Source: Campylobacterales bacterium
GTDB taxonomy: Bacteria; Campylobacterota; Campylobacteria; Campylobacterales; Campylobacteraceae
Reading direction: 5' to 3'
Assembly (NCBI GenBank): GCA_014859645.1
Contig: JACUTV010000001.1
Span: 33,823 to 97,822, forward strand
DNA length: 64,000 nt
Numbering within the stretch: the first letter of the stretch is position 1; every line of letters begins with the position of its first letter. Position numbers and translations under genes: made by a program. Shown here in pieces: positions 28,799-41,372 of this stretch. The notes under the pieces are model-generated. The model was not told where the DNA came from, ran no database searches, and saw only the letters and a program-made list of their open reading frames with translations.

Positions 28799-29410
28799 TT
28801 GGAGGCAACAGTGAGAATCGCATACAAACCCTTAGTAGATCGCTACAACATCCCCCGTCCAACCCTCATAGAATGGCAAAAAAAAGCAGAAGATAAAACC
28901 CCAAATTGGCGCACCAAACACTTGCAGTACTTGCGCGAGCAACTGGAGATTGAAGAAGAAACCATCAGTGAAATCAACCAAAAAGGGATTTTACTTGAGG
29001 AGTATTTTCTGTGGGTTACTTTTTTGTTTTTCGAACATGCCAAATACCCTTTGCCTAAATCCACCTTTGCTCAAAAACTTCGCAAGTTTTCCTTTGTCGT
29101 GCAGTTTGGCGTAGAGTATCAACACCCCTATGCTAAACGCATTTGGCTTGAAACAGAAGTGGATGGCCGAATGCAACGGGTTGCACCCTATGTAAGTTTG
29201 GTTGAAGTGAGTGAACGGCTCACAGCGGCGCAATACTATTGTGTGCAGTCGATTTTACTGCGTATCTTAGACGGGATGCGGCGCAAGCTTAACATCACAT
29301 CAAAACCTGCTTTATTGGGTTCAACGTGGCAAGAACTCCATGCATACGACAAAACCTTTTCCCTTGAGGCACTAAAAAAAGAGTTAAGTGTGCAAGGTCT
29401 TTCCTTTTAG
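28799..29410 (+). CDS. Hypothetical protein (possible N-terminal HTH)
   Basis: 203-aa ORF (TTG 28799, or GTG 28811); no family recognised; a 15-bp perfect hairpin lies immediately upstream. Confidence 0.5.
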   Translation: MEATVRIAYKPLVDRYNIPRPTLIEWQKKAEDKTPNWRTKHLQYLREQLEIEEETISEINQKGILLEEYFLWVTFLFFEHAKYPLPKSTFAQKLRKFSFVVQFGVEYQHPYAKRIWLETEVDGRMQRVAPYVSLVEVSERLTAAQYYCVQSILLRILDGMRRKLNITSKPALLGSTWQELHAYDKTFSLEALKKELSVQGLSF

Positions 29411-29444
29411 CGCGTACCAACACGTTGGGAATGGTGAATAAAAG

Positions 29445-29472
29445 TTGACTGTCTAGGTATTTGTGTTACAAT
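29445..29472 (+). promoter_or_regulatory. Promoter of the TetR-hydrogenase operon (TTGACT-N16-TGtTACAAT)
   Basis: Near-consensus -35, 16-nt spacer and extended -10; a motif copy at 29499..29513 lies in the leader. Confidence 0.5.
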
Positions 29473-29498
29473 TTTGCCAAAGAATGCATTTTGGAAAA

Positions 29499-29513
29499 CC
29501 TTACATGTAAAGG
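29499..29513. repeat. Palindromic motif copy CCTTACATGTAAAGG
   Basis: In the leader of the TetR-hydrogenase operon; its AAAGGA arm is 10 nt upstream of GTG 29525. Confidence 0.9.
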
Positions 29514-29524
29514 ACGCAGGGATT

Positions 29525-30118
29525 GTGGCAAAGGTAAATAACAAATCAGAACTTATCTTAGAAGCGGCGTTGAAACTCTTTTCTACCCAAGGGTTTTACG
29601 CCACTACCATCCCGCAGATTGCCAAATCCATCGGCATGAGCGCGGGAAACATTTATAACTACTACACCTCAAAAGAACTCTTAGCACGAGAAATCATTCG
29701 CTACTCGTCCAAGATGATTGCCGCAAAGATTCAAAAAATCAACGAGTCCTCTCTTTCCTCTCAGGAAAAGATTCGAAAAATTGTCGAAGCCTATTTTTTG
29801 ATTGCGGAAAAAAAACCCGAACATTTAAACTACTTTTTGCGTGTGTTTCTTTCAAATAAAGAAGTCTTTAAAGACGGGTGCGATGGCATGCTTTGTGTGA
29901 GTGAGTTTATGACCGAACTCATGATTTTCTTTGAAGAAGGGGTGCGCAAGGGCGAACTTCGCAACCAAGATTTTTTTACTGCCTTTGGACTGCTGATGGG
30001 CTATTTGGGCGGATTTGTTTTTTTAAAAGGAGAAAATACTCTCTCGCGAGGATTATTAACCTACGTGGACGAAATCGCGGATAACATTTACCGTGCGTTG
30101 AAAGCGGAAGATGCCTGA
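29525..30118 (+). CDS. TetR-family transcriptional regulator
   Basis: HTH FYATTIPQIAKSIGMSAGNIYNYYTSKELL. Start set at GTG 29525 because the TTGACT-N16-TACAAT promoter at 29445..29472 lies inside the longer ORF. Overlaps the hydrogenase small subunit by 8 nt. Confidence 0.85.
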   Translation: MAKVNNKSELILEAALKLFSTQGFYATTIPQIAKSIGMSAGNIYNYYTSKELLAREIIRYSSKMIAAKIQKINESSLSSQEKIRKIVEAYFLIAEKKPEHLNYFLRVFLSNKEVFKDGCDGMLCVSEFMTELMIFFEEGVRKGELRNQDFFTAFGLLMGYLGGFVFLKGENTLSRGLLTYVDEIADNIYRALKAEDA

Positions 30119-31028
30119 TGTAAGCGGGGAACCCTTTAGCATCGCATGGGTGCAAGGGCTTACATGTAACGGTAATAGCCATTCGCTTTTAAATTACGCT
30201 CACTACGCTTCTTTTTGCGAAGCGTTTTCTTTTTTATACCATCCTCTTTTACCCACACCTTTTGATTTACAAACGCTGATGCGCGCTGATGTGCCTATCG
30301 ATGTACTGGTGATTGAGGGAGCGTTGAGTCACGACGCTTCTATTGTTGAGCGTTATGGCATGGGGTTAGATACCATCTTAGACGCCCTTGTGGCACGTGC
30401 CACCCATGTGGTTTGCGTGGGCAGTTGTGCTTCATTTGGAGGTGTTTTTAAAGAACGCAATCCTGAAAAAATCATGGGTGGTCTTTTTCGGGGAGAAAAA
30501 GAGGGCGGTTTTTTTGGAACAACCTTTAAAACTCCCAAAGGCAATCCCCTCATTAACCTTCCTGGCTGCCCTGTGCACCCTTCGTGGATAGCGGAGGTGT
30601 TGATGCTGTTAAAGCACCGCCAACCTCTGCGCCTCGATGCCTTGCAACGTCCCAAAGAAGTGTATGCGTACCTTGCCCATCATGGATGTTTGCGTAACGA
30701 GTATTTTGAATGGAAGGTAGACTGCGACACCTTTGGTACAAAAGAAGGGTGTTTGTTTTACGAACAAGGATGCCAAGGCCCCATGACCCATGCTAATTGC
30801 AATAAAATACTATGGAACGAAACCAGTAGCAAAACGCGCGTAGGGAGCCCCTGTTTAGGGTGTACTGAGCCAAGTTTTCCCAAGCAGGCTCTTTTTTTAA
30901 CCCCCAAATACATGTCCTTACCCGCCACGCCCGTAGGGGTTTCCAAGCGCGCTTATTATGCCCTTGCAGGGGTTGCAAAGGGGTTTAAGATTGAACGGTT
31001 AGAAAAAAGGCTGATGGATGAGGATTAG
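30111..31028 (+). CDS. [NiFe] hydrogenase small subunit, cytoplasmic (no Tat signal), group-2-like
   Basis: 305 aa; GSCASFGG, PGCPVHP, HHGC, GCQGP..C and PCLGC cluster motifs; no RRxF signal; the first motif reads TCNGN rather than CTGC. Confidence 0.85.
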   Translation: MPDVSGEPFSIAWVQGLTCNGNSHSLLNYAHYASFCEAFSFLYHPLLPTPFDLQTLMRADVPIDVLVIEGALSHDASIVERYGMGLDTILDALVARATHVVCVGSCASFGGVFKERNPEKIMGGLFRGEKEGGFFGTTFKTPKGNPLINLPGCPVHPSWIAEVLMLLKHRQPLRLDALQRPKEVYAYLAHHGCLRNEYFEWKVDCDTFGTKEGCLFYEQGCQGPMTHANCNKILWNETSSKTRVGSPCLGCTEPSFPKQALFLTPKYMSLPATPVGVSKRAYYALAGVAKGFKIERLEKRLMDED

Positions 31029-32352
31029 TCGAGAGATTGTGGCGCGGATTGAGGGTGAGGCAAAGCTAGAACTCACATGGAAAGAAGGAAAGGTGGTTGA
31101 TTCAAAAATTGCTTTTGTCAATTACCGAGGGATTGAAGAGATTTTAAAAGAGCGCCATCCCCTTGATGCCCTTGTGATTACGCCGCGGGTGTGTGGTATT
31201 TGTTCCCATGCGCACATTAGTGCCGCGGTATTGGCTCTTGAGAATTGCTACGAGACTATAGGGTATCCTTTAGAGCTTTCTGCTAAGGCAAAAGGGATTC
31301 GCACAGTGGTGCTCAATGCTGAAAAAATCCAAAACCACCTCAAATGGCTCATGGTTTCCATCGTACCTGAGCTTGCAAAACAGGAAGAGAGCCTTTGTGC
31401 GCTTGCGGATGTTAGGGGAAAAAGTTGGTTTGCTACCCAAGAAGCCTTTACGAAGATTTTAAAAATGGGAGCTATCTTTAGCGGACAATGGCCCCACGGG
31501 AGCTACGTGATGGTGGGCGGTGTGACATGTGACCCTACTTACATGGATGTTATGCAAGCACGGTTGTTGCTTGATGATGTGGATAGGTTTTGTGAAGCGC
31601 ATGTATTTGGCGTTTCTAGTGAAGCCATCGTGAGCGGTGCGCTTACTTTGGGGACATTGCAACAGACATCCTTGCTGGGCCAAGTGCTTGAAGTGTTGTT
31701 GGGTGAGTCGTTTGCTACACTGGGGAGAAGTTACGATCGATTTTTAGCACTTGGGCTTGATGCGGGGCAAAGAGCGCAAAAATGCCTTAAAACGCGCGTG
31801 GTGGGAGCAGACCCAAAATACGTGAGTGAAAGTTTGGCCAATACGTTTTTTGAGGAAAATGGGTACACCTATTCTAAAAGTGCACTCTATAAAAACAAAT
31901 ATTTTGAAACAGGCCCCTTGGCACGCATGATGATAGACAAAGAGCCGTTTGTGCGTGACATGCACCGTAGATATAAAGATGCCCTTCCTACGCGGGTGTT
32001 GGCGCGGGTGTTGGAGGTTGCGTACCTCATCGTCCAAACGCGCACCTTGCTTGAGAATCTTTGCATCAAAGAGCCTTCATGTAAAAAAGTCCCTTTTCCT
32101 ATCGAAACGCTAAATACCAGAGGGCAGGGCATTGTAGAGGCGGCGCGCGGTTCGTTGATACACAAGGTTGAAATTAGCAAGGGAAAAATACGCACCTATG
32201 ACATTATCACGCCCACGGTGTGGAACCTTGGTAACGGCACAAAAAAAGAACCTTCTGTGGTTCAAAAAGCACTTTTGGGCATTGAAAAACCCAGCGAAGC
32301 AGACTTGATTTTTAAAGGACTTGATGTGTGTTCGGTCTGCACAACTCAGTGA
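31018..32352 (+). CDS. [NiFe] hydrogenase large subunit, cytoplasmic, lacking a C-terminal extension
   Basis: 444 aa; N-terminal RVCGICSHAH; the C-terminus DVCSVCTTQ is followed directly by a stop. Confidence 0.88.
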   Translation: MRISREIVARIEGEAKLELTWKEGKVVDSKIAFVNYRGIEEILKERHPLDALVITPRVCGICSHAHISAAVLALENCYETIGYPLELSAKAKGIRTVVLNAEKIQNHLKWLMVSIVPELAKQEESLCALADVRGKSWFATQEAFTKILKMGAIFSGQWPHGSYVMVGGVTCDPTYMDVMQARLLLDDVDRFCEAHVFGVSSEAIVSGALTLGTLQQTSLLGQVLEVLLGESFATLGRSYDRFLALGLDAGQRAQKCLKTRVVGADPKYVSESLANTFFEENGYTYSKSALYKNKYFETGPLARMMIDKEPFVRDMHRRYKDALPTRVLARVLEVAYLIVQTRTLLENLCIKEPSCKKVPFPIETLNTRGQGIVEAARGSLIHKVEISKGKIRTYDIITPTVWNLGNGTKKEPSVVQKALLGIEKPSEADLIFKGLDVCSVCTTQ

Positions 32353-32594
32353 GGCAATATTTCAAAATTAAAATGGTACGTAGGGCCCAGTAAGTGCCTG
32401 CACTCCTTGTCGTTTTTGCCATCATCCATGCACCGCTGATATGCATCCGCTTTTTTATTAAACTCGCGAGGTTCAATAGTTGATTTGATAACAAGCTCTT
32501 TTTTTTCAGGGCGAGGCACGCGTTTTTTTAGATAGGGGTATGCGTTGATGTCGCTACCGCTGAGTGCTAACGCAACCCAAGTTGTTAAGACCAT
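32346..32594 (-). CDS. Small secreted hypothetical protein
   Basis: 82 aa; strong SD AAGGAGGT 4 nt before ATG; hydrophobic N-terminus; two Cys; convergent 7-nt overlap with the hydrogenase large subunit. Confidence 0.55.
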   Translation of the reverse strand: MVLTTWVALALSGSDINAYPYLKKRVPRPEKKELVIKSTIEPREFNKKADAYQRCMDDGKNDKECRHLLGPTYHFNFEILPH

Positions 32595-32796: not shown

Positions 32797-32814
32797 AATG
32801 AATAATCATTCATT
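32797..32814. promoter_or_regulatory. AT-rich inverted repeat AATGAAT-N4-ATTCATT upstream of hydA (candidate metalloregulator box)
   Basis: Perfect 7-bp arms about 55 nt upstream of the hydA ATG; loosely Fur/NikR-box-like. Confidence 0.25.
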
Positions 32815-32866: not shown

Positions 32867-34024
32867 ATGGAACATGCCGAAATGTTTGAGAAGGTTTCTG
32901 CGCGACTTGCAGAGCTTTCGAAATTTCCGAAGCTTCGGGAAGATAAGTCCATTCGCAGTATGATGGACGAAAATGGCGTCAATCGCCGTGATTTTATGAA
33001 ATGGGCGGCGGGTATGACAGCGCTTTTGTCTCTCCCTTCTTCCTTTACGCCATTGATGGCTCAAGCTGCAGAACTTACCGATCGCTTGCCAGTGGTGTGG
33101 TTGCACATGGCAGAGTGTACGGGCTGTAGTGAGAGTTTGGTTCGCACCGCAGAGCCAACGATTGATAGCTTGATTTTTGACTTCATCTCCCTTGAGTACC
33201 ATGAAACATTGATGGCAGCGGCGGGTTGGCAAGCAGAGCACAATCTTGAAGATGCTATCAAAAAATACAAAGGGCGACTTATCTTGATGGTTGAGGGCGG
33301 AATTCCAGAAGGTCAAAGTGAGTTCTACTTGACTGTTGGACCACATGGCACCACAGGAGCAGCGCATGCACGTGCTGCCGCAGAGTCTGCCGCAGCTATT
33401 TTTGCTATCGGTTCTTGCTCAAGTTTTGGTGGGGTGCAAGCGGCTTATCCAAACCCAACCAACGCACAACCTATGAGTAAAATCACTAAAAAAACGGTTA
33501 TTAATGTCCCTGGATGTCCTCCAAGTGAGAAAAACATTGTGGGCCAAGTGCTTCACTATGTCTTGTTTGGCGCCCTTCCTGCGTTAGATGTATATAACCG
33601 TCCAAAATGGTCTTATGGTATCCGTATTCACGACCTTTGTGAGCGACGTGGCCGCTTTGATGCGGGCGAGTTTGTTGAGCAGTTTGGTGATGAAGGTGCG
33701 AAAAAAGGCTATTGTCTTTATAAAGTGGGCTGTAAAGGGCCATACACGTTTAACAACTGTTCTATCGAGCGCTTCAACCAACACACCTCTTGGCCAATTC
33801 AAGCAGGTCATGGTTGTATTGGATGTAGTGAACCAGATTTTTGGGACACTATGGGGCCATTTGAAGAACCGCTTGGTAGTAGACTTTACCAAACACTTTA
33901 TGGTGTAGGTGCGGATAAAACGGCGGACAGAGTTGGTATTGCATTGCTAAGCGCAACAGCTGTAGGTATTGCGGCGCATGCTGCGATTGCTGCAGTTAAA
34001 GGTTCAAAGAAAGACGAGGAATAA
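32867..34024 (+). CDS. hydA: Membrane-bound uptake [NiFe] hydrogenase small subunit (Tat-exported)
   Basis: Twin-arginine signal NRRDFMKWAAG; ECTGCSES, GSCSSFGG and GCPP motifs; C-terminal TM anchor. Confidence 0.95.
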   Translation: MEHAEMFEKVSARLAELSKFPKLREDKSIRSMMDENGVNRRDFMKWAAGMTALLSLPSSFTPLMAQAAELTDRLPVVWLHMAECTGCSESLVRTAEPTIDSLIFDFISLEYHETLMAAAGWQAEHNLEDAIKKYKGRLILMVEGGIPEGQSEFYLTVGPHGTTGAAHARAAAESAAAIFAIGSCSSFGGVQAAYPNPTNAQPMSKITKKTVINVPGCPPSEKNIVGQVLHYVLFGALPALDVYNRPKWSYGIRIHDLCERRGRFDAGEFVEQFGDEGAKKGYCLYKVGCKGPYTFNNCSIERFNQHTSWPIQAGHGCIGCSEPDFWDTMGPFEEPLGSRLYQTLYGVGADKTADRVGIALLSATAVGIAAHAAIAAVKGSKKDEE

Positions 34025-34027
34025 GCC

Positions 34028-35752
34028 ATGAGTAAGCGAATTATTGTAGACCCTATTACACGGATCGAAGGCCATCTTCGGGTTGAGGTAGAGGTGGATG
34101 AGAACAATGTGGTCACAGAAGCCTATGCTTCTTCAACCCTTTGGCGAGGTCTTGAGACCATCTTAAAAGGACGTGATCCTAGGGATGCGGGCTTTTTTGT
34201 CCAACGTATTTGTGGTGTTTGTACCTATTCTCACTACAAGGCAGGGATTGAAGCTGTGGAGAATGCCCTTGGTATTCAGCCGCCACTCAATGCTGTGTTG
34301 ACACGTTCATTGATGCTTATTTCCTTGTTTATGCATGACCACCCTGTGCATTTTTACCAACTTCATGGATTGGATTGGGTAGACGTGGTTTCTGCGTTGA
34401 GCGCAGATCCTAAAAAAGCATCTGAGGTTGCATTCCAGTACACTGATAGCCCGATTGCAACGGGTCATGACCACCTCAAAGCCGTCCAAGAGCGTGTGGC
34501 AGCCTTTGTTAAAAAAGGACACCTTGGGCCGTTCGCGAACGCCTATTGGGGACACAAAACATACCACTTGACACCTGAACAAAACCTCATCGCGCTTTCA
34601 CATTACCTAGAGTGCTTGCGCATTCAGCGTACAGCGGCACAGATGATGGCGATTTTTGGTGCAAAACAACCTCATCCACAGTCACTAACTGTTGGTGGCG
34701 TTACATGTATCATGGACCTTATGAGTCCAGCGCGTTTGGGCGAATTTATGGTCAAATACCAAGAAGTCGCTGATTTTATCAACCGCGCATACTACCCTGA
34801 TGTCGTAATGGCAGGTAAAGCATATTCCGTAGAAGAGAGTGTTCTTAATGACCTAGGAACCGCTAACCTCTTTACTTATAAAGAGTTTGCACTAAGTGCG
34901 ACTGAGACTATTTTTGAGAGCGGTATCATCATGAACGGCGACTTGAGTAAAGTGCTAGAGCTTGATGAGAGTAAGATTACTGAAGAAGCAACGCGTGCAT
35001 GGTACGTGGATAATGAGCCCTTGCATCCGTATGATGGCAAGCAAAATCCTAACTATACAGGGTTTGTGAGCATGGACACCATCAACGATAAAGGCGAACT
35101 TGCCCATTCTAAAGCTATTGATTCTAAGGGTAAATACACTTGGGTTAAAGCTCCTCGTTATGATGGCAAGCCAATGCAAGTTGGACCACTTGCAAACATC
35201 GTCGTCAACTACGCCAAAGGCAACCCACGTGTTGTCAAAGTTGTTGACCAATTCTTGAAAGACACTGGCTTGCCTTTGGCAGCTGCCCTTTCAACACTCG
35301 GACGTACAGCGTGCCGTATGCTTGAAACCAAGGTGATTATTGACAGCGGGATGGAAGCGTTCCAAAGTCTTGTCAATAACCTTAAAGTGGACCAATCTAC
35401 CTGCGCTCCGTATGTGATTGACAAAAACAAAGAGTACAAAGGACGCTACATCGGTAACGTGCCTCGTGGAGTGCTTTCTCACTGGATTCGCATCAAGGGT
35501 GGCGTGATCGAAAACTACCAAGCGGTTGTTCCTACGACGTGGAATGCCTCTCCTAAAGATGCAAGCGGTGTGCGTGGACCATACGAAGAAGCGTTGGTGG
35601 GTCTTAAAATTACGGACTTGTCTCAGCCTTTAGAGATTATCCGTATCATCCACTCATTTGACCCATGCCTTGCGTGTGCGGTGCACGTTATGGATACCAA
35701 AGGCAACGAAATCAGTAGCTATAAGGTCAATCCAAACGGTACGAGCTGCTAA
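34028..35752 (+). CDS. hydB: Uptake [NiFe] hydrogenase large subunit
   Basis: 574 aa; RICGVCTYSH and DPCLACAVH motifs followed by a 21-aa cleavable tail. Confidence 0.96.
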   Translation: MSKRIIVDPITRIEGHLRVEVEVDENNVVTEAYASSTLWRGLETILKGRDPRDAGFFVQRICGVCTYSHYKAGIEAVENALGIQPPLNAVLTRSLMLISLFMHDHPVHFYQLHGLDWVDVVSALSADPKKASEVAFQYTDSPIATGHDHLKAVQERVAAFVKKGHLGPFANAYWGHKTYHLTPEQNLIALSHYLECLRIQRTAAQMMAIFGAKQPHPQSLTVGGVTCIMDLMSPARLGEFMVKYQEVADFINRAYYPDVVMAGKAYSVEESVLNDLGTANLFTYKEFALSATETIFESGIIMNGDLSKVLELDESKITEEATRAWYVDNEPLHPYDGKQNPNYTGFVSMDTINDKGELAHSKAIDSKGKYTWVKAPRYDGKPMQVGPLANIVVNYAKGNPRVVKVVDQFLKDTGLPLAAALSTLGRTACRMLETKVIIDSGMEAFQSLVNNLKVDQSTCAPYVIDKNKEYKGRYIGNVPRGVLSHWIRIKGGVIENYQAVVPTTWNASPKDASGVRGPYEEALVGLKITDLSQPLEIIRIIHSFDPCLACAVHVMDTKGNEISSYKVNPNGTSC

Positions 35753-35767
35753 GCTAAGGAGCAAACA

Positions 35768-36442
35768 ATGTCAAAACGCACAAGAGTTTATGAATTTTCA
35801 GTTGGCTACAGGTGGACGCACTGGATACGTTTTATTATGATGTTTATCTTGGTAGGCACAGGGTTTTATTTGACCTATGTGTTCGCGTCTCCTAGGCCTT
35901 CGGGTGAGCCCATTTTATTTTTGCATGCAGAAGTAAGAATGTGGCATCAAATCGCAGGATTTGTGCTGATCGCAGCGACAATCTTTAAAACGTATCTGTT
36001 CTTTTTTGATCGTATTAGCAGATTTGAACGGGTTTCATTTTGGGACTTTATCAGTCCTAAAGTGTGGATTGCGCAAATCAAGTACTACTTGTTTATGGGG
36101 CCACATCCTCACATGCGCGGTGCTTACAATCCGTTGCAGTTTATGGCTTACCTTGGGTTGTACGCGATGATTGTTCTGATTTCGTTGACAGGACTTATTT
36201 TGTACGTCCATGTATACCACCAGGGTCTTGGCGGGTTGTTGTATGATTTCATGCGACCTCTTGAGGCCATGATGGGCGGACTTGCTAATGTTCGCCAGAT
36301 TCACCACATCACTATGTGGGGGATTTTGATCTTTACTCCTATCCATATCTATTTGGCTATCTTTAGCTCCATCAAGGGCAAAGAAGGCGCTTTGGATGCA
36401 GTATTTAGTGGGTACAAATACACTAAAAACGACCATCATTAA
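35768..36442 (+). CDS. hydC: Hydrogenase cytochrome b subunit
   Basis: 224 aa; four TM helices with conserved histidines; follows hydAB. Confidence 0.9.
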   Translation: MSKRTRVYEFSVGYRWTHWIRFIMMFILVGTGFYLTYVFASPRPSGEPILFLHAEVRMWHQIAGFVLIAATIFKTYLFFFDRISRFERVSFWDFISPKVWIAQIKYYLFMGPHPHMRGAYNPLQFMAYLGLYAMIVLISLTGLILYVHVYHQGLGGLLYDFMRPLEAMMGGLANVRQIHHITMWGILIFTPIHIYLAIFSSIKGKEGALDAVFSGYKYTKNDHH

Positions 36443-36454
36443 GATGGGTTGTTG

Positions 36455-37012
36455 ATGAAGGTTCTTGTACTTGGAATAGGCAATGTGATGTTCTCCGACG
36501 AAGGTGTCGGAGTGCATCTTTGCCATTTGGTTGAACAAAAGTATGCGTTTACTTCTTCTGAGCACACCGTCGATTTTGTCGACGGTGGCACCCTTGCCGA
36601 ACGGTTGATTCCTGTCATTGCCCCGTATGATTATGTGATTATTTTTGATTGCGTGGATGCAAATGATGGTAAGATTGGGGATGTCTATTTCTTTGATTTT
36701 GAAGATGTGCCCAATTCAATTACATGGCAAGGAAGCGCTCACGAAGTGGAAATGCTCCAAACCTTGACGATGATGGATTTGCTGGGCGATCGCCCACCTA
36801 CAAAGGTACTTGGGATTATCCCTGAAGTGATTTCCATTACGACACTTGAACTAACCAACGCGGTGCGCGAAGGCGCAACGGTGATGGAAAAAACATTTAT
36901 CGACCACATGCGCACCCTTGGGTTTGAAGTTGTGGTGGAAAAACCAGAACTGACTATCCAACAAGTCGCCAATCTTGCGTGCCAAAGAGAGTATGATGAT
37001 TCTAGCGTTTGA
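36455..37012 (+). CDS. hydD: Hydrogenase maturation endopeptidase (HyaD/HybD family)
   Basis: MKVLVLGIGNVMFSDEGVGVH N-terminus; start set at ATG 36455. Confidence 0.9.
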   Translation: MKVLVLGIGNVMFSDEGVGVHLCHLVEQKYAFTSSEHTVDFVDGGTLAERLIPVIAPYDYVIIFDCVDANDGKIGDVYFFDFEDVPNSITWQGSAHEVEMLQTLTMMDLLGDRPPTKVLGIIPEVISITTLELTNAVREGATVMEKTFIDHMRTLGFEVVVEKPELTIQQVANLACQREYDDSSV

Positions 37013-38648
37013 ATTTCACTATGTTTCCCACAACGGTGTGTTGGAAAATTTTCTATTTCAAGCTTTGGAGGAAAATCCCCTTCCTTTTTCCCTTGAGCGT
37101 GAAGGCGGTGCTGTGACCTTGTGTGTTGAGGGCGAAGAAGCAGTCTTGATCGATTTTTCAGAGCGCTTAAGCCGTGCTTTGCCCCTTTCGCTGTACTTTA
37201 AATCCTTACATGTAAAGGTAGTAGAAGCGCTTGGCAAAGGTTCCATGAAACGACCCGCGTGCGAGGTAGCGTTGCCTTTTACGCCACAAATGCTCACCCG
37301 CGTGATGGACACATACAATCCCTTCACTCCTCCTGCTTTTGGAAAAAACATCCAAGGCCATGAACCCTTGCGGTTAACTAAAGAGAAAAACTTTCTAACA
37401 AGCCAGACCACTGCTTTTAAAGAAATCTTTGCTGCCGCGGCACAGATGGCCCAAGAAAATCCCTTACATGTAAAGACAACCACTGGGTGGGTTCGCCTTG
37501 AAGTGCTTACATGTAAAGCATCTTCTTTTGATGAGACGTCTGTGGTGGTACCGTGTGATTTGAGCGTTGTGGAAAAAATGGTGGTTATCAAAGAAGACGA
37601 AATTAAAGCCCTAGCTTCTTTGGAAAAACCTATTTTACGGCTTCCTATCAACGCCATTTTTGCCGCCAAAGACATTTTGCCGGTGCGGTTTGTCAACCTA
37701 AAAATGGCAGACGATTTGGTGCTTTATTTGCTATGTACGTCGCTTTTTGCGCAAGGGGTGGAGTTTGTAGTACTCACGCCTTGCGAACCAACAGAAGAAA
37801 ACGCGCTGACCTACGAAGGGGGCGAATTTCGTGAGCCTATCGGCGTGGTAGTGTTGGAAAATGGTGAAATCATCCCCACCTTTGGACAAACCTACACCAA
37901 TCCGCTGGTTCAAAAAAGTGCCCAAGCTTTTGAGGAAAAATCCCACGGACACTTTGCCGCACTTTTAAAAGAACACCACCTTTTTGATGCTTCGGTGGCG
38001 TGTTTTTACCTTAGCCGACACCATGACGATGCTTTTATGGTCTACCAAGAGGCCCTTGGGATGGTGGATTTGGTCAAGGTGGAGTTTCCTGATACCATCG
38101 GGGCTATTTTGGATGCCATTAAAGAGAGCGGTAGTAGTGGCGAACGCTTGGTGGCAAATTTTACCAAAGCGCACCCCGAGCGCGTGGCCTTTGCACGCGA
38201 GCTCACCCTTGCGGGAGAGCCTAAAAGCGTGGCAACGCTCATGGGCGTGGCGGGCGTATTGTTTGGGTACGCTAACACAGTCCAAGAGGCTACGTCGGTG
38301 ATGCTTGAACATGCGATGGCTTTTAGCGGTCTTAAGGGTCCAAGGATTGACTATCTTTTGGAGGGCGAAACCCTTAAGGGTACTTTAAATCCCATGCGTG
38401 TGGTGCGTAGCGGGATGAGTTATCATCTTGCGGATTTGGATGCCCTGACCCTTAGCTTTGGGTACGTGGACAGTTTGGGGTATTTTATCTCCGACACCCT
38501 TGACCGCATGAAAGAGGAATTTAAAACAACCCACACGGGCTTTTGTGGCGGACTGTTCGCTAATCGACGCATGGCAGAAGTAGCCGCACGCCAAGCACGG
38601 GTTTCTCATACGGTGTGCTTTAACCGCGAACTTCCTTTGGACACCTAG
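36993..38648 (+). CDS. hydE: HydE; degenerate HypF-like protein lacking zinc fingers
   Basis: ORF 36975..38648, with ATG 36993 overlapping the hydD end. Aligns by eye with the downstream HypF across the acylphosphatase-like, YrdC-like and Kae1-like regions (VEGEEAVLIDF vs VEGDEARLDAF; CGGLFANRRM vs GGGVFQNKTL). All CxxC fingers are absent. Confidence 0.7.
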   Translation: MMILAFEFHYVSHNGVLENFLFQALEENPLPFSLEREGGAVTLCVEGEEAVLIDFSERLSRALPLSLYFKSLHVKVVEALGKGSMKRPACEVALPFTPQMLTRVMDTYNPFTPPAFGKNIQGHEPLRLTKEKNFLTSQTTAFKEIFAAAAQMAQENPLHVKTTTGWVRLEVLTCKASSFDETSVVVPCDLSVVEKMVVIKEDEIKALASLEKPILRLPINAIFAAKDILPVRFVNLKMADDLVLYLLCTSLFAQGVEFVVLTPCEPTEENALTYEGGEFREPIGVVVLENGEIIPTFGQTYTNPLVQKSAQAFEEKSHGHFAALLKEHHLFDASVACFYLSRHHDDAFMVYQEALGMVDLVKVEFPDTIGAILDAIKESGSSGERLVANFTKAHPERVAFARELTLAGEPKSVATLMGVAGVLFGYANTVQEATSVMLEHAMAFSGLKGPRIDYLLEGETLKGTLNPMRVVRSGMSYHLADLDALTLSFGYVDSLGYFISDTLDRMKEEFKTTHTGFCGGLFANRRMAEVAARQARVSHTVCFNRELPLDT

Positions 38649-40958: not shown

Positions 40959-41372
40959 ATGGATAACGTTATTCGTTTTAGTGTTTCACTCCCCGAGCAA
41001 TTGCTGGTTGAGTTGGACAAAAAAGTCTCCACCCAAGGGTATGCGTCACGAAGTGAATTTACCCGCGACTTGATTCGTGAGAAGATTGTGAAAGACAGTT
41101 GGAAAGACGATAATTCTGATGTTATTGGCGTTTTGACGATGATTTATACCCATCATCAAAATGATTTAGTACAACGCATTATTGATATTCAACATGACGC
41201 AAAAATTAAAATCATGTGTAACACCCATGTACATGTAGACCACGACAACTGTCTTGAGACAGTCATGGTGCAAGGCCAAGCCAACAAAATCCAAGATTTT
41301 GCCCAAAAAATTGGCGGCCTCAAAGGGGTTAAATTTTCCAAACTTGTGAAAGCGGCGGTTCCTGCGTCGTAA
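40959..41372 (+). CDS. nikR: Nickel-responsive regulator NikR
   Basis: 137 aa; ribbon-helix-helix [15 protein letters not shown]; C-terminal nickel-binding His/Cys (HVHVDHDNC). Confidence 0.9.

Follow-up and report, generated by a model that had tools for sequence, protein, structure and literature searches.

A TetR-family regulator translationally coupled to a group 2d [NiFe] hydrogenase is a candidate H2-responsive repressor of the uptake hydrogenase in Campylobacterota

How do H2-oxidising Campylobacterota regulate their uptake hydrogenases? To our knowledge they are without the HoxJ/HoxA, HupUV/HupT, ArcA and Fnr systems. The role of the group 2d [NiFe] hydrogenases has likewise been a long-standing question, ever since their discovery in Aquifex and in vent and sediment Epsilonproteobacteria. 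Both questions are raised by one locus in a 64,000-nucleotide stretch of a Campylobacterales genome (assembly GCA_014859645.1, contig JACUTV010000001.1, positions 33,823 to 97,822 of the forward strand; hereafter the window), in which a tetR gene and the two genes of a cytoplasmic hydrogenase, huaS and huaL, precede the uptake hydrogenase operon hydABCDE. A preliminary description of the window proposed that these genes are an H2-sensing module or, alternatively, that they include a group 2d-type enzyme. We propose that the uptake-hydrogenase regulon has its dedicated repressor in this TetR protein, which binds the palindrome TGAAT-N4-ATTCA, a reading well supported by comparative sequence evidence (roughly three chances in four), and that the group 2d enzyme may be its H2 signal input, so that tetR-huaS-huaL would be a conserved three-gene regulatory module of the Campylobacterota. 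We give the full circuit a probability of roughly 0.45.

The host is a Sulfurospirillum-like member of the Campylobacterota, with S. tamanense as the nearest named relative (83% identity for the small subunit and 95% for TetR). The first gene, tetR (29525..30118, + strand), encodes a 197-aa TetR-family regulator with a FadR-like helix-turn-helix (HTH) and a cysteine pair, Cys119-x4-Cys124, in the alpha6-alpha7 loop. It is followed by huaS (also named hupS; 30111..31028, +), for the small subunit of a group 2d [NiFe] hydrogenase that carries no twin-arginine translocation (Tat) signal and ends in a conserved 54-aa C-terminal tail, and by huaL (hupL; 31018..32352, +), for a large subunit with the motifs L1 RVCGIC (Cys59, Cys62) and L2 DVCSVCTTQ-stop (Cys438, Cys441) and no C-terminal extension. 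The tetR stop codon overlaps the huaS ATG by 8 nt, and the huaS stop codon overlaps the huaL ATG by 11 nt; the three genes are one translationally coupled operon upstream of hydABCDE. A sigma-70-like promoter (29445..29472, +; TTGACT, 16 nt, then a TG-extended TACAAT, with matches at 10 of 12 positions) is the sole strong match upstream of tetR. The single promoter, the 8-nt overlap and the position immediately before hydABCDE were all part of the preliminary description and are confirmed here. In the list of open reading frames (ORFs), tetR was given as 29474..30118, opening with TTG at 29474. The true start is almost certainly the GTG at 29525, because the resulting 197 aa are the length of every homologue, because a database protein (P0121) is 100% identical across these 197 aa, and because a Shine-Dalgarno sequence, AAGGA, sits 10 nt upstream of this GTG.

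To see how far this arrangement extends, we surveyed a single genome from each GTDB species and retained the 80 loci whose small subunits are closest. These belong to Sulfurospirillum, Sulfuricurvum, Sulfurimonas, Sulfurovum and unnamed Campylobacterales; the 2d loci of Aquificae lie outside these 80. Upstream DNA sufficed for an assessment in 78 loci, and 74 of these have a gene for a TetR orthologue immediately ahead of the small-subunit gene and in the same orientation (Phmmer E 1e-46 to 1e-93); in about 80% of loci tetR overlaps the small-subunit start by 1-20 nt. The linkage to TetR, on which the preliminary description had made its proposal depend, is thus kept in at least four genera. 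We also obtained 80 metagenome loci in a survey seeded with a distant TetR relative. A 2d-type small subunit lies directly downstream of tetR in 68 of these; the order is tetR-hypB-huaS-huaL in two, a Tat-dependent group 1 hydrogenase follows tetR in one, and in four tetR adjoins HypX-like and HypD-like ORFs, as judged by eye from their N-termini. In many loci of the Sulfuricurvum type (L041, L046-L048, L054-L058, L060, L062, L068 and L072) we also observed a second group 1 hydAB pair, 43-50% identical to HydA of the window, directly upstream of tetR at a distance of about 3-5 kb. The tetR module is flanked by two uptake hydrogenases in these loci, and the 400 bp upstream of the second hydA showed no palindrome.

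A candidate for the site of regulation was found between huaL and hydA. The window contains a single perfect copy of a 14-bp palindrome, TGAATAATCATTCA (32799..32812, no strand assigned), located 55 nt upstream of the hydA ATG and directly after a TATAAA -10-like box; we read it as the predicted TetR operator on the hydABC promoter. The downstream operon, hydABCDE (32867..38648, +; hydA 32867-34024, hydB 34028-35752, hydC 35768-36442, hydD 36449-37012 and hydE 36975-38648), encodes a Tat-exported, membrane-bound uptake hydrogenase and is the predicted regulated target. The pattern was first seen, as GAAY-N4-RTTC, beside the -10 box of Sulfuricurvum-type tetR promoters. Base composition predicts 8.7 copies of the strict 14-mer TGAAY-N4-RTTCA in the 1.26 Mb of the 80 genome loci, and 99 are present: 66 in the 300 bp before hydA, 14 before tetR and 19 at other places. 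Where hydA follows huaL, the palindrome is present in the intergenic region of 65 of 69 loci, the other four carrying copies with one mismatch, and in the metagenome set it is present in 23 of 26. In Sulfuricurvum and Sulfurimonas types a TACAAT-like -10 box is followed 2-3 bp later by the start of the site; in Sulfurospirillum the site comes after a TATAAA or TTTAAT box. Such a position relative to the -10 box is typical of a repressor site.

The tetR promoter itself may also be a target. With a position weight matrix (PWM) built from the hydA sites and scored against background percentiles, 22 of 69 tetR promoters exceed the 99th percentile (about 0.7 expected), most of them outside Sulfurospirillum. 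In the window, a weak operator-like site, TGAATAAAAGTTGA (29435..29448, +), has one mismatch to TGAAY-N4-RTTCA, overlaps the -35 box of the tetR promoter and reaches a PWM score of 3.4, between the 95th and 99th background percentiles. This site is not significant by itself, and its position alone is suggestive, because sites with one mismatch occur in the window at chance frequency (5 found, 9.9 expected). A search for inverted repeats in two intergenic regions at default settings gave nothing useful at tetR. The tetR 5' leader also holds an imperfect palindrome, CCAAAGAATGCATTTTGG (29479..29496, +), a candidate second operator or RNA hairpin; other Sulfurospirillum loci have a similar element, AAAnTGCAyTTTG, in the corresponding place.

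Does this palindrome belong to the TetR protein? The box bound by the TetR-family regulator FadR of Bacillus is WTGAATGAMTANTCATTCAN, and the crystallised operator of B. halodurans contains TGAATACTCATTCA (PMC5397183); the hydA site of several Sulfurospirillum loci is identical to TGAATACTCATTCA. For S. multivorans, the upstream TetR gene was already noted and presumed to encode a repressor of hupSL by Kruse et al. (PMC5357620). If its action were confined to this local role, the palindrome at hydA would be the site of a different, unlinked regulator, and the palindrome at the tetR promoter of the Sulfuricurvum clade, together with a nikR gene in the cluster, would be in keeping with that. We consider this account improbable, given that the palindrome is a FadR-type TetR box, that it goes along with this narrow family of TetR proteins even into distant clades whose gene order is different, and that hydA has it much more regularly than tetR does. 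NikR half-sites are widely spaced, unlike the 4-bp spacing found here. We rejected NikR as the binder of the palindrome on this difference in half-site spacing. Binding of the palindrome by TetR is strongly indicated.

The regulator matches Pfam TetR_N (PF00440, 2.2e-15, residues 28-74 of the long ORF) and the NCBIfam FadR model (3e-12). Its AlphaFold2 model has nine helices and a mean predicted local distance difference test score (pLDDT) of 87.6. A Foldseek search with this model gave 451 PDB matches (E<=0.001), of which the 50 listed are without exception TetR-family regulators; the fold is an ordinary one, with Bacillus FadR and E. coli RutR among the best matches. These matches are generic TetR proteins, with no redox- or metal-sensing precedent among them. 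When 1.8 billion cluster representatives (50% identity) were searched exhaustively with HMMER, only eight clusters scored E<1e-30, after which scores fell to those of generic TetR proteins. In each of the 65 loci whose genes are full-length, identity to the window protein is higher for TetR than for the small and large subunits (medians of 61% for TetR, 53% for the small subunit, 44% for the large subunit and about 52% for HydA and HydB); TetR is the most conserved protein of the locus. By these comparisons it belongs to a narrow, separate and slowly evolving clade. Cys119 and Cys124, in the motif KDGC-x-GM-x-C, are present without exception in the genome orthologues (67 of 67) and the metagenome orthologues (80 of 80), and they lie in the sole low-confidence internal segment of the model, the loop between helix 6 and helix 7.

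Such conservation over the whole length of TetR, the invariant cysteine pair and a gene arrangement that suits stoichiometric co-translation might also be expected if the TetR-like protein were mainly a structural or electron-accepting third hydrogenase subunit, like HucM in Huc, with a vestigial capacity for DNA binding. We regard this as very improbable. The HTH and its recognition helix are the best-conserved part of the protein and match Pfam TetR_N, the family has a matching palindromic operator that co-evolves with it, and there are members without an adjacent hydrogenase structural gene.

We next consider the hydrogenase. The small subunit matches Oxidored_q6 and NiFe_hyd_SSU_C of Pfam, and the large subunit matches NiFeSe_Hases. 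HydA has a TAT_signal match; the small subunit has none, and its cluster motif begins only 12 residues from the N-terminus. This Tat-less small subunit and the RVCGIC and DVCSVC motifs of the large subunit are those of a cytoplasmic heterodimer. More than 1,600 database relatives of the small subunit were found, of which the closest 120 are 52-92% identical and the named sources are Sulfurospirillum (54-83% identity) and other Campylobacterota. The cytoplasmic [NiFe] hydrogenase huaSL of a Sulfurospirillum isolate has been classified as group 2d (PMC12286921), and the S. multivorans enzyme has been described as HupSL (SMUL_1421-1422; PMC5357620). We take the window enzyme to be group 2d (HupSL/HuaSL), with orthology to the published enzymes assumed from genus and gene context, not from direct sequence comparison; the alternative of a group 2d-type enzyme offered in the preliminary description is correct on this basis.

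The proximal cluster motif reads WVQGLTCNGNS in the small subunit, whereas HydA has ECTGCSES, and the proximal ligands are Cys19, Asn22, Cys106 and Cys153. Three cysteines are available for the medial cluster, and a histidine and three cysteines for the distal one. By this ligand pattern the proximal cluster is probably modified or of the 3Fe type, with a medial cluster on three cysteines and a normal distal cluster. Aligned relatives conserve the motif W-x-Q-G-(L/I)-T-C-N-G-(N/D), and more distant 2d-type small subunits retain C-x-G/A-N; the second proximal cysteine position is Asn (or Asp) throughout the family and likewise in HucS. The tail extends 54 aa past the last cysteine and about 40 aa past the Pfam domain, and its invariant residues are R280, Y282, G287, K290, F292, R296, L297 and L301. 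It is uninterpretable in the AlphaFold2 model of the small subunit, in which pLDDT is below 50 across residues 194-305. The large subunit's C-terminal extension is absent in every relative. All 75 relatives end in CTT(H/Q) or CTAQ, with His as the last residue in the Sulfuricurvum type and Gln in the Sulfurospirillum and Sulfurovum types.

The preliminary description had recorded the missing Tat signal, the Asn in place of the second cysteine of the HydA motif ECTGCS and the DVCSVCTTQ terminus without an extension, and all of these stand. It also gave the small-subunit tail, which is present but longer than the stated 45 aa or so. It called absence of the extension a hallmark of H2-sensing regulatory hydrogenases. 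The Cys-to-Asn change, the tail and the missing extension are family traits, so that Asn is not the peculiarity of one strain, and none of them proves sensing. They are not diagnostic because the respiratory enzyme Huc has some of them, including the Asn.

Published expression data are informative about the role of this enzyme. Transcripts of hupL are barely detectable in S. multivorans (PMC5357620), soluble uptake activity was not found in S. denitrificans (PMC4149538), and the Aquifex enzyme is hardly detectable, with a regulatory role suggested (PMC10052474). Such low levels of transcript, activity and protein fit a sensor. In A. butzleri, transcripts of the group 1b hydrogenase genes hynAB were 2- to 6-fold higher in H2-fed than in acetate-fed cells and those of huaSL were lower, with about half of the whole gene set differing between the two conditions (PMC12286921). 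This shows that H2-responsive hydrogenase regulation exists in the phylum.

We infer that the 2d hydrogenase may be the H2 input of TetR because the translational coupling is near-obligatory, because TetR is the sole conserved partner gene, with no diaphorase or ferredoxin partner, because TetR is conserved over its whole length beyond the enzyme, because the cysteine pair is invariant and flexible, because the small-subunit tail is strongly conserved and positioned like the tail of regulatory hydrogenases, and because the published enzyme levels are sensor-like. In the circuit that we propose, a dimeric FadR-like TetR would recognise TGAAT-N4-ATTCA at or after the -10 box of hydABC; in many relatives the palindrome is also found on the tetR promoter or upstream of genes for Hyp proteins or nickel transport. 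While bound there, TetR would keep the H2-uptake regulon from being transcribed. TetR and the low-abundance cytoplasmic group 2d hydrogenase would be made from one mRNA. With H2 present, the hydrogenase would reduce the Cys119-x4-Cys124 pair of TetR, or dock through the small-subunit tail, and either event may alter the DNA affinity of TetR and derepress hydABC.

The same operator and linkage evidence would fit equally well if TetR represses the hydrogenase regulon and senses another cue, such as O2, oxidants or sulfide through the cysteine pair, nickel, or a small molecule in the TetR pocket. In that case the 2d enzyme would be a metabolic enzyme under this regulation, for example a source of low-potential reductant for the reductive tricarboxylic acid cycle; reductant supply is the default role of group 2d in the literature (PMC5357620, PMC4149538). 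We hold this to be a serious possibility, with odds well under even. Thiol-based and metal-sensing TetR proteins do exist, among them NemR, ComR and SczA. Another cue is also in keeping with perfect copies of TGAAT-N4-ATTCA upstream of cysK-like, metY-like, NicO-like nickel-transporter and Tat flavoprotein genes near hydrogenase loci (L038:1066, L040:244, L042:251, L052:243, L071:12391, L077:2161 and L079:1164), and a further copy precedes a membrane-protein gene between huaL and hydA. These copies hint at a wider regulon touching sulfur and nickel metabolism.

The distant members of the TetR family bear on the same question, as TetR relatives occur in hydrogenase clusters that have no adjacent 2d enzyme. 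They are found in the gene orders hypF-hypB-tetR-group 1 hydrogenase and hydE-tetR-hypF. In the former, one palindrome lies directly after the hydrogenase -10 box and another upstream of hypB, and in a low-GC (guanine plus cytosine) clade the palindrome lies between tetR and a hypF-like gene. Distant members in hydrogenase clusters have a shifted cysteine pair in the same loop (F-C-x4-5-C), and the two TetR relatives away from hydrogenase genes have no cysteine pair. At three loci (L095, L099 and L100; 43-45% GC), TetR relatives with C-x4-C adjoin a convergent 560-aa HypX/HoxX-like ORF and a HypD-like ORF, both assigned by eye from their N-terminal sequences alone; their source could be Aquificota.

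Sensing of another cue by TetR would leave unexplained both the translational coupling of tetR to the hydrogenase in about 90% of cases and the better conservation of TetR than of the enzyme that accompanies it. A diaphorase or ferredoxin partner gene was never co-located with huaSL in the surveyed genome and metagenome loci, and the enzyme was barely expressed or detectable where examined, a poor fit to a bulk metabolic role. As for nickel, the NikR of the cluster already covers its sensing. Control of TetR by the 2d hydrogenase, and not by another cue, is moderately indicated.

Several observations weigh against the proposed H2 circuit. Four genome loci have no adjacent TetR (L023, L027, L032 and L043). 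TetR members L084, L090 and L095-L100 stand in hydrogenase clusters with no adjacent 2d enzyme, and may work without it, though it could be encoded elsewhere in those genomes. The structural traits suggestive of a sensor are common to Huc, a respiratory enzyme. The site in the tetR promoter is degenerate in most Sulfurospirillum, the window included, and in principle the palindrome could be bound by some other regulator. Any contact or passage of electrons between HuaSL and TetR is putative, as is the role of the hydrogenase as source of the signal. In S. multivorans, hydB is near-constitutive and hupL almost silent (PMC5357620), which simple co-repression does not predict. The rise of hynAB and fall of huaSL under H2 in A. 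butzleri does not fit simple joint derepression, presuming that this TetR is present in that strain.

The hydrogenase-TetR H2-sensing module of the preliminary description therefore stands in part. It gains from the family-wide TetR linkage, the palindrome at the hydABC promoter and the cysteine pair; the structural hallmarks are not diagnostic, and the TetR neighbour had already been published. The statement that no histidine kinase is adjacent was borne out, as Pfam scans of the larger ORFs detected no kinase or receiver domain, and hence no histidine kinase or response regulator, in the region of about 20.4-52.6 kb. Contrary to that description, TetR is not the only regulator. A nikR gene (40959-41372, +; RHH_1 and NikR_C domains) lies between hypF and hypB and is a second regulator within the hyd/hyp cluster.

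The order of genes downstream of huaL is a convergent 82-aa ORF, hydABCDE, hypF, nikR and hypBCDEA. The 82-aa ORF (32346-32594, -) overlaps the huaL stop codon and has a signal-peptide-like N-terminus, a strong AGGAGG ribosome-binding site and no Pfam match. Its region looks like a strain-specific insertion because the huaL-hydA gap is 514 bp in the window against a median of about 250 bp among relatives. On the other side of the operon, between a CNNM/CBS transporter gene and tetR, a 203-aa ORF (28799-29410, +) with no Pfam or NCBIfam match is found at the same position in Sulfurospirillum loci with 40-74% identity. A terminator-like hairpin with a T-run (30205-30235, +), about 95 nt inside huaS, is not kept in the 80 relatives and was rejected as a family feature; in this strain it could make transcripts of huaSL scarcer than those of tetR.

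The class of the enzyme and the adjacency of TetR in a single genome are already known. The family-wide coupling, the cysteine pair, the operator on hydABC, hyp and other hydrogenase promoters, and the circuit were not found in the searchable literature. A remark on a single genome is thereby turned into a testable circuit with a regulator, a 14-bp operator, two cysteines and a candidate sensor. If it is true, a one-component TetR protein would be a new type of output for hydrogenase-based gas sensing, and three genes and one operator would make a compact H2-responsive switch, possibly useful in synthetic biology. More broadly, we tentatively suggest, with the odds leaning somewhat against it, that group 2d hydrogenases may be H2 sensors that signal directly to a dedicated TetR by cysteine-pair reduction or tail docking, and control uptake hydrogenase, maturation and nickel genes across the Campylobacterota and probably the Aquificota. 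This would be a third route for H2 after the histidine-kinase-linked (group 2b) and the predicted diguanylate-cyclase-linked (group 2c) ones.

The regulator shares its fold with the acyl-CoA-responsive FadR (YsiA) of Bacillus (TM-score up to 0.85 to B. subtilis FadR), and the operator cores are nearly identical, WTGAATGAMTANTCATTCAN for FadR and TGAATAATCATTCA or TGAATACTCATTCA for the hydA sites. Sequence identity is about 20%, however; the ligand domain of the window protein differs and includes the C-x4-C loop, and its predicted targets are hydrogenases in place of beta-oxidation genes.

The closest solved structure to the enzyme is the group 2a hydrogenase Huc of M. smegmatis (PDB 7UTD; E 2e-56 for the small subunit and 6e-33 for the large subunit), and the window enzyme is nearer by sequence to Huc than to group 2b. 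The Huc small subunit has C-S-G-N at the proximal cluster, and so has C-x-G-N in common with the window enzyme; in Huc all three clusters are [3Fe-4S], with a fourth ligand other than cysteine (PMC10017518). The two differ at the distal site, where the window enzyme keeps His (HHGC) and Huc has QTGC, and in their tails. Huc is a respiratory oligomer that reduces menaquinone and is assembled around HucM, whereas the window small subunit adjoins tetR. No hucM stands among the neighbours of huaSL, which are tetR upstream and the small convergent ORF and hydABCDE downstream, and no search was aimed at a hucM homologue.

The regulatory hydrogenases of group 2b (HoxBC-HoxJ-HoxA of C. necator and HupUV-HupT-HupR of R. 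capsulatus) are likewise cytoplasmic and Tat-less, have a C-terminal extension of the small subunit and Ile in CGIC, and stand beside an uptake hydrogenase. The large subunit of the C. necator regulatory hydrogenase is unprocessed at its C-terminus and the enzyme has three [4Fe-4S] clusters (PMC9100943). The window enzyme likewise lacks an extension of the large subunit; its small-subunit cluster ligands, read from the sequence, differ from those of the three [4Fe-4S] clusters in the proximal Cys-to-Asn/Asp change and a medial site with three cysteines. The group 2b enzymes signal through a histidine kinase and a response regulator; in the window, which has neither, the output would be a one-component TetR.

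The group 2d enzymes themselves (hydrogenase III of Aquifex aeolicus, HupSL of S. multivorans, Suden_1437-38 of S. denitrificans and HuaSL) are likewise cytoplasmic, composed of two subunits and found beside a membrane-bound uptake hydrogenase, and the window small subunit shares 60% identity with its S. diekertiae counterpart. The enzyme described here is no different from these; what is added is its family-wide coupling to TetR, the cysteine pair and a predicted operator on hydABC.

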